From the UHGV virus genome UHGV-0114473: a stretch of 36,939 nt of DNA; one strand, given 5' to 3'. Origin of the DNA: a virus. Under the pieces are notes generated by a model. It worked only from the letters and a program-made list of their open reading frames with translations. It had not been told where the DNA came from and did no database searches. The position numbers and the translations under genes are program-made. Of the stretch, positions 3,324-23,560 are shown in pieces (position 1 is the first letter of the stretch; every line of letters begins with the position of its first letter).

Positions 3324-3385
3324 GTTGGTTTTTCTCCACGGATTTACTGACAACCGAAGCCCTGACTGTTCCCGCAGTTGGGGCT

Positions 3386-3607
3386 TCACTGTTTTTGTAA
3401 GTCACTGTAGCTATAAAGCCACTGACCACTCATTTTTGATTTGATTGACTCTACTGAATCACGGCAAGGAATGATTCCACCTGACATCATTCTGATCTCC
3501 GTAAATTCACCACTCCTTATCGACTCAATGCCATTAACGTTAACTAAAGATTTACCTCTACCAAGTGCATTCTCATAGCCAATCTCATCAACCTCGATAA
3601 ACTTCAT
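3386..3607 (-). CDS. Hypothetical 73-aa protein between arc and ant
   Basis: ORF whose ATG overlaps the arc stop (ATGA), suggesting translational coupling. No recognisable motif; P22 has no gene at this spot. Confidence 0.4.
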
Positions 3608-20002: not shown

Positions 20003-20488
20003 TTATTTCAGTTCGTTACCAGGCATTTCTTTTAGCTCTTTCAAATGACAACGATTGAGACTAAACCACTCCCCGTGCGACCTATAGTTGTAATATTTTT
20101 GGTGCAATTTGGTTTCAAGCTCTCTATCGGCCGGAATCTTTGCAATTAGATTTAGCTTCCCACCACTCATGCGAGATATCTCTGAAATTCGTTTATTAAC
20201 CCTGCGACTAAACCCTATTTTTGTTAGCCCACTATCTTCAGCATGCAGAACGTACACATATGATTTTTGCGAAGCACTGGGTGCGACTTTGTTGTAATTA
20301 ATCATGTCAAACATGAAGCCTTGCTTTAGCAAAGTTTCAAAAAAGATAGAATTAACACACCCATTCCTTCTCAGCTCTGCACTTAGCTTGTCAATTTCCT
20401 CTATGATGTCGCCAGACCCCTTTCCACTTATAAGAAAATCTTGGTACATGCGACCAATTCTTGAGGTAATTTCAACAAAGTTATTCAT
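20003..20488 (-). CDS. T5orf172 (GIY-YIG-like) domain protein with unknown N-terminal domain
   Basis: C-terminal half YVYVLHAEDSGLTKIGFSRRVNKRISEISRMSGGKLNLIAKIPADRELETKLHQKYYNYRSHGEWFSL fits the T5orf172/MUG113 pattern (YVY…KIG…R…GEWF). The gene is visibly AT-rich. Confidence 0.6.
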   Translation of the reverse strand: MNNFVEITSRIGRMYQDFLISGKGSGDIIEEIDKLSAELRRNGCVNSIFFETLLKQGFMFDMINYNKVAPSASQKSYVYVLHAEDSGLTKIGFSRRVNKRISEISRMSGGKLNLIAKIPADRELETKLHQKYYNYRSHGEWFSLNRCHLKELKEMPGNELK

Positions 20489-20831: not shown

Positions 20832-21299
20832 TCATCGAAGGCATTGCGTCCTGATGTACTCCTGAAGCGTTCTCAGTGCTGTTTGGTCGCGGATAATTCC
20901 GTCCCGGACACCGAGAACGTTTCGTCCAGCAACTGGAGAGAGTTCGACGGTGGCATCATTGCCCATGCCGGAGGCGCTGGAGGTTTCGGCTGAGGATGGC
21001 ACAGGGCATTTTCCTTTGACGAGCACCCTGCCACCATTATCAAGCTTGCGCCGAAGAGCATCATTTTCAGCTTTCGCATCAGCTAACTCCTTCGTGTATT
21101 TAGCATCGAGTGCATCAGCAGTACGCTGGCGCTGCTGCATGTCAGTAATGGTGGCAGTCGCCTGCTTCAGCTCACTGACTTTTTTATCGCGCTGCTCTTT
21201 GTAGGCGATGGCGTTATCACGGTAGTGATTAACAGCCCATGACAGGCAAACGATGATGCAGATAACCAGAGCGGAGATAATCGCGGTTACTCTGCTCAT
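20832..21299 (-). CDS. Rz: Rz i-spanin
   Basis: N-terminus [31 protein letters not shown] matches lambda Rz (signal-anchor TM), then coiled-coil; follows the endolysin gene. Confidence 0.85.
20873..21079 (-). CDS. Rz1: Rz1 o-spanin lipoprotein (embedded in Rz, +1 frame)
   Basis: [21 protein letters not shown]… with lipobox LIMVAG|C and a Pro-rich segment [11 protein letters not shown], like lambda Rz1. Confidence 0.8.
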
Positions 21300-21772
21300 A
21301 CCTCAATCTCTCTGACCGTTCCGCCAGCTTCTTTGAATTTTGCAATCAGACTGTCAGCCTTATGCTCGAACTGACCATAACCAGCGCCCGGCAGTGAAGC
21401 CCAGATATTGCTGCAACGGTCGATTGCCTGACGGATATCGCCACGGTCAATCATCGGTAAAGCGCCACGCTCTTTAATCTGCTGCAGTGCCACAGCGTCC
21501 TGGCTTTTGGGAGAGAAGTCTTTCAGGCCAAGCTGCTTGCGGTAGGCATCCCACCAACGGGAAAGAAGCTGGTAGCGTCCGGCGGCTGTTGATTTGAGTT
21601 TGGGGTTTAGCGTGACAAGTTTACGAGGGTGATCGGAGTAATCAGTGAATAGCTCTCCTCCTACAATGACGTCATAACCATGATTTCTGGTTTTCTGCCG
21701 TCCGTTATCAGTTCCCTCTGACCATGCCAGCATATCGAGGAACGCCTTACGTTGATTATTGATTTCCACCAT
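21296..21772 (-). CDS. R: Endolysin (lytic transglycosylase), lambda R
   Basis: 158 aa; [51 protein letters not shown]… is essentially lambda R as recalled. Confidence 0.95.
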
Positions 21773-22079
21773 CTTCTACTCCGGCTTTTTTAGCAGCGAA
21801 GCGTTTGATAAGCGAACCAATCGAGTCAGTACCGATGTAGCCGATGAACACGCTCGTTATATAAGCGAGATTGCTACTTAGTCCGGCGAGGTCGAGAAGA
21901 TCACGAATGAACCAGGCGATAATGGCGCACATCGTTGCGTCGATTACTGTTTTTGTAAACGCACCACCATTATATCTGCCGCGAAGGTACGCCATTGCAA
22001 ACGCAAGGATTGCCCCGATGCCTTGTTCCTTTGCCGCGAGAATGGCGGCTAACAGGTCATGTTTTTCTGGCATCTTCAT
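21756..22079 (-). CDS. S: Holin, lambda S (class I, dual start)
   Basis: 107 aa; [63 protein letters not shown]…, near-identical to recalled lambda S107/S105. Confidence 0.95.
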
Positions 22080-22321
22080 GTCTTACCCCCAATAAGGGGA
22101 TTTGCTCTATTTAATTAGGAATAAGGTCGATTACTGATAGAACAAATCCAGGCTACTGTGTTTAGTAATCAGATTTGTTCGTGACCGATATGCACGGGCA
22201 AAACGGCAGGAGGTTGTTAGCGCGACCTCCTTCCACCCGCTTTCACGAAGATCATGTGTAGAAGGCCGCAGCATAACTATCACTGATGAATTCAGGATAG
22301 CCATTGGCTACGGCTCAGTTA

Positions 22322-22397
22322 TGGTGCTGGTTAACGGACTTGAACCGCTACCCATTCGCTTACAAGGCGACTGCTCTACCATTGGAGCTAAACCAGC
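22322..22397 (-). tRNA. tRNA-Thr (anticodon UGU)
   Basis: Hand-folded cloverleaf of the minus strand: GCTGGTT acceptor, GCTC/GAGC D-stem, anticodon loop CTTGTAA, T-arm AGCGG-TTCAAGT-CCGTT, 3' AACCAGC-A-CCA. One A·G at 27-43. Confidence 0.7.
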
Positions 22398-22402
22398 ATG
22401 TT

Positions 22403-22477
22403 TGGCGGGACAGCGTGGACTCGAACCACGATAAGAAGGTTAACAGCCTTCCGTAATGACCTTTATACGACTGACCC
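22403..22477 (-). tRNA. tRNA-Asn (anticodon GUU)
   Basis: Hand-folded: GAAGG-CTGTTAA-CCTTC anticodon arm, CGTGG-TTCGAGT-CCACG T-arm (same as the E. coli tRNA-Asn loop), discriminator G + CCA. One U·U mismatch in the acceptor stem and one in the D stem; 4-nt variable loop. Confidence 0.6.
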
Positions 22478-22481
22478 AAAG

Positions 22482-22539
22482 AAAAAATCCCGAAACAGTT
22501 CGCAGGTAATAGTTAGAGCCTGCACAACGGTTTCGGGAT
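22482..22539 (-). terminator. tR'-like terminator of the late leader (6S) transcript
   Basis: Minus strand: AATCCCGAAAC…GTTTCGGGATT long hairpin followed by TTTTTT. Matches the recalled lambda tR' region almost base for base. Confidence 0.75.
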
Positions 22540-22674
22540 TGCATTTTGCAGACCTCTCAGCCTGCGATGGTTGGAGTTCCAGACGATACGTCGAAGTGAC
22601 CAACTAGGCGGAATCGGTAGTAAGCGCCGCCTCTTTTCATCTCACTACCACAACGAGCGAATTAACCCATCGTT
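22482..22674 (-). ncRNA. Lambda-type 6S late leader RNA with qut region (PR' to tR')
   Basis: About 193 nt between the predicted PR' start and the tR' T-run, as in lambda (194 nt). Sequence resembles lambda …GGGTTAATTCGCTCGTTGTGGTAGTGAGATGAAAAGAGGCGGCGC…. Confidence 0.55.
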
Positions 22675-22680
22675 GAGTCA

Positions 22681-22709
22681 AATTTACCCAACTTTATTCA
22701 ATAAGTCAA
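22681..22709 (-). promoter_or_regulatory. Late promoter PR' (Q-dependent antitermination site downstream)
   Basis: Minus strand TTGACT (rc of 22704..22709), 17 bp, TAAATT (rc of 22681..22686), immediately downstream of Q. Confidence 0.7.
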
Positions 22710-22751
22710 TATCATGCCGTTAATATGTTGCCATCCGTGGCAATCATGCTG

Positions 22752-23375
22752 CTAACGTGTGACCGCATTCAAAATGTTGTCTGCGATTGACTCTTCCTTG
22801 TGGCATTGCACCACCAGAGCGTCATACAGCGGCTTAACAGTGCGTGACCAGGTTGGTTGGGTAAGGTTGGGTATTAGCATCGTCACAGCGCGATATGCTG
22901 CGCTTGCTGGCATCCTTGAATAGCCGACGCCTTTGCATCTTCCGCACTCTTTCTCGACAACTCTCCCCCACAGCTCTGTTTTGGCAATATCAACCGCACG
23001 GCCTGTACCATGGCAATCTCTGCATCTTGCCCCCGGCGTCGCGGCACTACGGCAATAATCCGCATAAGCGAATGTTGCGAGCACTTGCAGTACCTTTGCC
23101 TTAGTATTTCCTTCAAGCTTTGCCACACCACGGTATTTCCCCGATACCTTGTGTGCAAATTGCATCAGATAGTTGATAGCCTTTTGTTTGTCGTTCTGGC
23201 TGAGTTCGTGCTTACCACAGAATGCAGCCATTCCGAATCCGGCTTGTGATTGCGCCATCCCCATAGCAGCCATCACATCAGTACCGGAAAGAGAGTCAGA
23301 AGCCGTAGCCCGTGGTGAGTCGCTCATCATCGGGCTTTTTGGCGAATGAAATTTAGCTACGCTTTCGAGTCTCAT
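22752..23375 (-). CDS. Q: Late-gene antiterminator Q (lambda type)
   Basis: 207 aa; MRLESVAKFHSPKSPMMSDSPRATASDSLSGTDVMAAMGMAQSQAGFG… with the CRDCHGTG…CGRCKG zinc-binding motifs; matches recalled lambda Q. Confidence 0.95.
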   Translation of the reverse strand: MRLESVAKFHSPKSPMMSDSPRATASDSLSGTDVMAAMGMAQSQAGFGMAAFCGKHELSQNDKQKAINYLMQFAHKVSGKYRGVAKLEGNTKAKVLQVLATFAYADYCRSAATPGARCRDCHGTGRAVDIAKTELWGRVVEKECGRCKGVGYSRMPASAAYRAVTMLIPNLTQPTWSRTVKPLYDALVVQCHKEESIADNILNAVTR

Positions 23376-23560
23376 CGTCTTCCCCTCTTGCCCTGTTTGA
23401 CCATCAGGACGCCGTTAACTATTACATGACGCTCACCTTTGCTGTCTCTGTTGTACTTGAGCACTGTTCCTCTTGCACAGGAAAGCCTCCTCGCCACTTC
23501 GGTCTGATTGCCTCGTGTCTGGATAAGAAGTTCTGGTATCGTTTGAATTGTGGCGTTCAT
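23372..23560 (-). CDS. ninH: NinH-like protein
   Basis: 62 aa; …IPELLIQTRGNQTEVARRLSCARGTVLKY… resembles lambda NinH; position upstream of Q. Confidence 0.75.
   Translation of the reverse strand: MNATIQTIPELLIQTRGNQTEVARRLSCARGTVLKYNRDSKGERHVIVNGVLMVKQGKRGRR

Follow-up and report, generated by a model that had tools for sequence, protein, structure and literature searches.

The stretch of DNA analysed here (the window, 36,939 nt of virus genome UHGV-0114473) has a late control region that resembles that of phage lambda, and in its leader, just ahead of the holin gene, an initial annotation made from the sequence had placed two tRNA genes. This locus raises the question of whether these are working tRNAs and, if so, when they would be made and what they would be for. 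We consider it very probable that they are two genuine, functional phage tRNA genes, carried as a mobile late-operon cassette, transcribed by Q-dependent read-through and serving as a late decoding supplement, chiefly for ACA codons. The occurrence of a tRNA-Asn/tRNA-Thr pair at this late-leader position is already known and is a documented, fairly common lambdoid feature.

ARAGORN identified exactly two tRNAs within the window, Thr(tgt) and Asn(gtt), both on the minus strand (Table 1). The Rfam tRNA model (RF00005) concurs, with E-values of 4e-11 for tRNA-Thr and 1.9e-09 for tRNA-Asn and with both scores about twice the gathering score of 29. These calls match the coordinates, anticodons and spacing of the initial annotation exactly and supply the strand, which it did not give. 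Along the minus strand, tRNA-Asn comes first, followed by the 5-nt spacer and tRNA-Thr. The annotated placement right after the T-run of the terminator tR' is likewise borne out: the first base of tRNA-Asn (22477) lies immediately 3' of the T-run, with 0 bases between the two.

Table 1. Features of the late control and lysis region, with positions in the window.
Feature	Position	Strand	Basis and details
Q, late antiterminator, lambda type, 207 aa	22752..23375	-	ORF; Pfam Antiterm PF03589, E 6e-58; 207/207 identical to lambda Q
PR' promoter: -35 TTGACT, 17-nt spacer with Q-binding element, -10 TAAATT	22681..22709	-	Promoter scan
6S-like leader, ends in tR' T-run	22478..22674	-	Lambda alignment; start ~22674 inferred by homology
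tR' intrinsic terminator: hairpin 22540-22486 and T-run 22487-22478	22478..22540	-	Fold
tRNA-Asn, anticodon GUU	22403..22477	-	ARAGORN; Rfam 55.3 bits; discriminator G73, encoded CCA, 4-nt variable loop
Inter-tRNA spacer AACAT, 5 nt	22398..22402	-	Sequence
tRNA-Thr, anticodon UGU	22322..22397	-	ARAGORN; Rfam 61.5 bits; G1-C72, C2-G71, A73, encoded CCA
Conserved 50-nt hairpin directly 3' of tRNA-Thr	22265..22314	-	Fold, dG -28.5 kcal/mol, z -5.2
Holin S, lambda family, first protein-coding late gene	21756..22079	-	Pfam Phage_holin_3_1, E 7e-30; ORF
Endolysin R	21296..21772	-	ORF; Kapi1 homologue annotated endolysin; no Pfam match
Rz spanin	20832..21299	-	Pfam Phage_lysis PF03245, E 6e-29

Both genes contain the elements expected of a working tRNA. 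The core of tRNA-Asn is complete (U8, A14, G18G19, U33, T-loop UUCRA and a 7-nt anticodon loop), and that of tRNA-Thr departs from it at position 14 alone, where it has C in place of A. U33, A37, a TUC T-loop and an encoded CCA are common to the two. By the identity rules of the E. coli synthetases, the elements read from the sequence are those for AsnRS in the first tRNA (GUU anticodon and G73) and those for ThrRS in the second (G1-C72, C2-G71, G35 and U36). The C14 of tRNA-Thr lies at position 22384 of the window (minus strand), where A14, the partner of U8, is nearly universal. It is shared by the Thr homologues of Klebsiella phages and of the metagenomic phage Tbat2_3 and is absent from phage CMS-2020a and from E. 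coli thrU.

The region upstream of the tRNAs follows the PR'/qut/6S/tR' architecture of lambda that the initial annotation had described. In addition to the identity of Q at 207 of 207 residues, PR' has the lambda hexamers and is near-identical to its lambda counterpart, from which a single A-to-G change, within the spacer, sets it apart. The leader, at about 97% identity to that of lambda, conserves the pause-inducing AACGAT and ends in a terminator hairpin and T-run. Its +1 position and length of 194 nt are those that we take lambda 6S RNA to have. The tR' hairpin has a predicted dG of -26.7 kcal/mol (z -7.2; 0 of 200 shuffles as good), its T-run reads TTTTTTCTTT (22487-22478), and its position about 190 nt downstream of the start fits a lambda-type module.

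The sole mildly unusual detail of this copy is a flip within the tR' hairpin. Its inner 39 nt (22495-22533, minus strand) are the reverse complement of the lambda and Kapi1 version (AACCGTTGTGCAGGCTCTAACTATTACCTGCGAACTGTT versus AACAGTTCGCAGGTAATAGTTAGAGCCTGCATAACGGTT), so that the segment between the hairpin arms is inverted, with the stem preserved and the loop complemented. The flip is rare: at least 120 IMG/VR contigs have the lambda orientation and just 2 the reverse one, both of them together with the tRNAs and the TTTTTTCTTT tail. To judge only by its 98.9% identity over the whole query, E. coli ETEC1730 is probably a further carrier.

The identity of this module to that of lambda points to Q-dependent read-through at tR'. 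As in lambda, PR' would fire constitutively and most transcripts would end at tR'. RNA polymerase modified by Q would pass tR' and run straight into tRNA-Asn and tRNA-Thr, then into S and the late genes. The tRNAs would presumably be cut from this polycistronic late RNA by RNase P at their 5' ends and by endo- and exonucleases at their 3' ends; no CCA addition would be needed, since CCA is encoded. A crude consensus scan of the late strand for sigma-70-like sites (21900-23400) found PR' and no separate promoter for the tRNAs. An independent tRNA promoter thus has no support from consensus sites, as PR' was the only site found and tRNA-Asn touches the T-run. Since PR' and the tRNAs are separated by no promoter-like site, and the T-run and tRNA-Asn by no base at all, the initial annotation's claim that the tRNAs are made only on Q-antiterminated transcripts is plausible.

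Alignment to lambda defines the slot that the tRNAs occupy. Homology ends after the T-run and restarts just past the CCA of tRNA-Thr, and in lambda the same slot is filled by about 160 nt that are unrelated and take in the end of orf-64. The tRNAs therefore do stand in place of part of the lambda spacer, as annotated. Describing them as inserted presumes a direction of change. We rejected the idea that the lambda segment is a decayed tRNA pair: ARAGORN found no tRNA in it, a permissive Rfam search (E up to 1) gave none, and its identity to the pair is at chance level. Past tRNA-Thr, about 240 nt of lambda-like leader run from 22321 to the holin gene S.

This downstream leader begins with a conserved 50-nt hairpin (Table 1) that is common to lambda, phage 21, BTP1, SfI and Kapi1. 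In phage 21 and SfI it is followed by a run of 5-7 T, which gives it the look of a second terminator there. The corresponding tail in the window reads CCUUCUAC, and the T-run is degraded in both the window and lambda. We presume that this hairpin may match a lambda late-leader processing site or a tandem terminator.

These flanking elements bear on an alternative in which the tRNAs are expressed in lysogens too. Constitutive PR' activity with slight read-through of tR' would then yield tRNAs without Q, for lysogenic conversion or for pre-loading the cell before induction. Because tRNA-Asn abuts the T-run, every read-through transcript would contain it, and the strong hairpin after tRNA-Thr, with its T-run in phage 21 and SfI, could halt such transcripts before the lysis genes. 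Against this, the second hairpin of the window lacks a good T-run, and tR' is predicted to be very strong. The transcriptome of BTP1, which carries identical tRNAs, is suggestive: 'the two tRNA genes' were excluded when five lysogen genes above 100 TPM were listed (PMC7067206). This wording seems to imply that the tRNAs, too, passed 100 TPM in lysogen cultures, which would weigh against strict Q dependence. Spontaneous induction of BTP1 is very high, however, and could explain the signal (PMC7067206). The Owen 2017 paper on BTP1 nowhere mentions a tRNA. We regard expression in lysogens as possible but doubtful.

RNA-seq of the near-identical Kapi1 prophage shows a clear antisense signal over the tRNAs (PMC12922286). 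A consensus scan of 21900-23400 found no plus-strand promoter antisense to the tRNAs, and the Kapi1 signal could be a library artefact or come from an unrecognised promoter.

A related proposal treats the pair as a self-contained unit between two hairpins, tR' and the 50-nt hairpin, in which leakage from PR' supplies lysogens with tRNAs and RNase P cleavage at the Asn junction frees a 6S-like RNA. If true, this arrangement could alter host decoding or buffer it against tRNA-targeting toxins in uninduced lysogens, and the locus would serve in regulation or lysogenic conversion in addition to supplementing late-gene codons. We think such a unit unlikely.

Codon use bears on our preferred reading, in which Q-dependent tRNAs supplement late decoding. 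ACA occurs at 15.0 per 1000 codons in the late genes, 16.5 overall and 29 in the tailspike gene, and it accounts for 9 of the 37 Thr codons of the coat gene. The E. coli values, taken from a single 50-kb K-12 segment and thus only a sample of the host, are 2.9 per 1000 in ribosomal protein and elongation factor genes and 11.5 in other genes. The genome-wide host codon values that entered one phage comparison are values we take as given. Asn codons show no phage-specific bias, and the SfI study noted the same (PMC3636060). The comparison of late-gene and host codon usage that the initial annotation had proposed came out positive for Thr, with ACA enriched, and negative for Asn. These data fit a decoding role for tRNA-Thr. 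The most likely benefit would be extra decoding during the burst of late virion-protein synthesis, chiefly of ACA, which is far commoner here than in highly expressed host genes; the contribution of tRNA-Asn would be less clear than that of tRNA-Thr. The authors of the SfI study likewise reported ACA enrichment and had no explanation for tRNA-Asn (PMC3636060).

The lack of an Asn codon bias that would explain tRNA-Asn is one of several observations consistent with a role in counter-defence instead of codon supplementation. Here, the phage tRNAs would replace host tRNA-Asn and tRNA-Thr lost to toxins, colicins or abortive-infection nucleases. GUN-anticodon tRNAs, including tRNA-Asn, are known nuclease targets, for example of colicin E5. 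Moreover, outside the anticodon loops both phage tRNAs have strongly diverged from their host counterparts asnT and thrU, and the acceptor, D and T stems of tRNA-Asn all differ from those of asnT. The anticodon loops themselves, however, CUGUUAA in tRNA-Asn and CUUGUAA in tRNA-Thr, are the same as those of asnT and thrU, so that a loop-recognising nuclease would cut phage and host tRNAs alike. The same identity led us to reject nuclease escape through altered anticodon loops. Counter-defence as the main function is, in our view, improbable.

The junction between terminator and tRNA-Asn invites another reading, in which the tRNA acts as RNA-processing punctuation. An RNase P cut at tRNA-Asn would free the 6S-like leader and create a new 5' end for the late mRNA, and decoding would be secondary. 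This reading would account for the absence of any base between terminator and tRNA and for the recurrence of the junction TTTTTT(A/C)TTT/GGGTCAG behind two different terminators. The E. coli gene order thrU-tyrU-glyT-thrT-tufB, whose products are co-transcribed and processed, offers a precedent for tRNAs joined to an mRNA. Short PR' RNAs can also be regulatory, as in the case of StxS (PMC7547250). Nevertheless, lambda, HK620 and IME10 function without tRNAs at this place, and the conservation of anticodons, identity elements and CCA points to decoding. We therefore hold punctuation as the primary role to be very unlikely.

Comparative evidence also favours functional tRNAs. Our covariation alignment comprised homologues from the Klebsiella phages Mulock and ST16-OXA48phi5.2, the metagenomic phage Tbat2_3 and phage CMS-2020a, together with E. 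coli host genes. In this small sample (6 sequences), the tRNA-Thr cloverleaf shows changes on both sides at 7 of its 21 pairs while 94.4% of cells remain paired; slid partners give 18-48% paired, and 0 of 500 shuffles reach the observed level. In tRNA-Asn, pairs 6-67, 7-66 and 28-42 are compensated relative to the Klebsiella phage homologues (again a small sample). Such compensatory changes, as seen in the aligned sequences, support functional cloverleaves. The imperfect stems noted in the initial annotation are real (U4.U69 and U13.U22 in tRNA-Asn, G27.A43 in tRNA-Thr). These mismatches are kept across phages of E. coli, Salmonella and Klebsiella, and their conservation through the phage lineage suggests that they are features rather than signs of decay. 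That the pair consists of decaying, functionless pseudo-tRNAs carried along by recombination is scarcely credible: the non-canonical pairs, the C14 of tRNA-Thr, the modest MFE z-scores of the tRNAs alone (-1.7) and the many relatives without tRNAs would fit such decay, but they are set against the Rfam scores, the compensatory substitutions and conserved mismatches, the intact CCA and identity elements, and the complete identity of the pair across phages with otherwise mosaic genomes.

Several observations indicate what type of phage carries this locus. The whole length of sar RNA, an antisense transcript from the P22 immI region, is matched at 3324-3390 on the plus strand (Rfam RF00262, 87.7 bits), which shows the phage to be P22-like and to have an immI module. 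The best whole-region matches of the window are phiv205-1, CUS-3, Kapi1 and HK620. Together, these results assign the window to a P22-like (Lederbergvirus) phage or prophage with lambda-type late control and a lambda-type lysis module. Between Rz and the DNA-packaging genes, close downstream of Rz and in a moron-like position, a 161-aa ORF (20003-20488, minus strand) encodes a T5orf172/MUG113 (GIY-YIG-like) domain (Pfam E = 4e-13). Over the first 70 aa compared, it is unrelated to Kapi1_043, which fills the equivalent place in Kapi1 and shows high expression in lysogens.

The tRNA pair is optional among related phages. HK620 has no tRNAs, despite virion genes that are about 95% identical and a lambda-type Q and S; we therefore rejected the idea that tRNA presence tracks the virion module. 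IME10 has a longer variant of the same slot that holds only other filler sequence and no tRNAs. P22 also lacks them (PMC8022706). Their absence from HK620 and P22 marks the tRNAs as dispensable accessories. Among 122 listed IMG/VR contigs with a lambda-type tR', a number that is itself a lower bound, 29 have tRNA-Asn and tRNA-Thr after the T-run (about 25% with the pair), 2 have tRNA-Asn only and 91 have neither. In complete E. coli genomes, about 311 records contain the pair with at least 95% identity, and in most of them the Q ahead of it is of the 21 type.

The left junction of the cassette is found behind both the lambda-type tR' and the unrelated short 21-type terminator. The window and Kapi1 have the cassette behind the former, and elsewhere it lies behind the latter. 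Given its association with at least two unrelated Q/terminator modules and its absence from close relatives, the best explanation of these sequence comparisons is that the pair is a small mobile, optional accessory cassette that is shuffled by recombination. Recombination within the shared flanks, namely the terminator T-run and the downstream 50-nt hairpin, would move the pair between Q modules.

Comparison with known systems places the window within this wider distribution. In the window, as in other phages with this cassette, the pair shares the orientation of the late operon and lies downstream of Q, with the late terminator on one side and the holin gene on the other. Over its 156 nt it matches the pair of phage 21, Sf6 and BTP1 at 100% identity, and it is 98-99% identical in Kapi1, HK446, mEp506, SPN9CC, SfI and others (99.4% in Kapi1 and HK446, 98.7% in SfI). 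Lambda matches the window in Q (100%), in the promoter, leader and terminator arms, and in the leader from 22321 down to S. It differs in having no tRNAs or tRNA relic (by ARAGORN and permissive Rfam) and about 160 nt of unrelated filler instead.

Kapi1 (MT813197), HK446, mEp506 and phiv205-1 share the exact combination, with a lambda-type Q, tRNA-Asn, tRNA-Thr and a lambda S in the same order. The 1.4-kb segment from Q to S is 96.6-97.1% identical to these four phages. The tRNAs are annotated in Kapi1 and mEp506, and the Kapi1 paper mentions them (PMC8787464). Relative to the Kapi1 group, the window has the inverted tR' inner hairpin and the T-run TTTTTTCTTT in place of TTTTTTATTT; otherwise, the loci are allelic variants.

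Phage 21 shares the tRNA pair (100%), the abutment of tRNA-Asn on the T-run, the junction (TTTTTTATTT followed by GGGTCAG, bar one base) and the same hairpin past tRNA-Thr. It differs in its own Q protein and QBE, a short terminated leader (~48 nt), the S21 pinholin and a full T-run at the downstream hairpin. Guo, Kainz and Roberts reportedly gave the first description of the phage 21 late leader, in 1991. The phage 21 record OL657228 is annotated in the order pR', QBE, TSS, terminator, tRNA-Asn, tRNA-Thr and S21, with the terminator extending up to one base before tRNA-Asn, which it thus abuts; the terminator entry cites PMID 1704887.

Other P22-like and lambdoid phages (Sf6, SfI, BTP1, ST64T and L) also have tRNAs downstream of Q at the same position, in their case with 21-type Q modules and various holins. 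The SfI paper describes tandem tRNA-Asn(GUU) and tRNA-Thr(UGU) downstream of Q and reports one or both likewise in Sf6, ST64T, PS3 and phage 21 (PMC3636060). tRNAs at this position have also been described for phage L (PMC8022706). In ST64T and L, the second tRNA is instead a variant with a UAA anticodon. At this locus (1294-1362 in ST64T, the same in phage L), the acceptor and T arms of tRNA-Thr are kept and the D/anticodon region is different. The variant scores 42 bits with Rfam and receives no ARAGORN call; it is annotated as tRNA-Leu in phage L, yet lacks a long variable arm.

Stx-converting phages carry a different set of tRNAs, ileZ-argN-argO. As in the window, their place is in the Q-controlled late leader, after a short RNA that is made constitutively and terminated (PMC7547250). 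In contrast to the window, which has no room for one, a separate transcription start has been mapped there between tR' and the tRNAs (PMC7547250).

Homologous Asn and Thr tRNAs are also found between the antiterminator or terminator and the holin gene in the Klebsiella phages Mulock and ST16-OXA48phi5.2 and in Tbat2_3, at 85-92% identity and with compensatory stem changes. These phages differ from the window in having extra tRNA-Phe and tRNA-Arg(UCU) genes, and their slot holds Asn-Phe-Thr-Arg(UCU) or Asn-Phe-Thr arrays. The presence of extra tRNAs between the homologues of the two tRNAs of the window suggests that the cassette grows by internal insertion.

As a discovery, the locus is thus of small significance, since studies of the late region of phage 21 already brought the identical pair at this position into the literature, and several public genomes have it annotated. 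What may be useful is the evidence that the cassette is transferred whole between modules of the lambda and 21 types, with its junctions at the T-run and at the conserved downstream hairpin.
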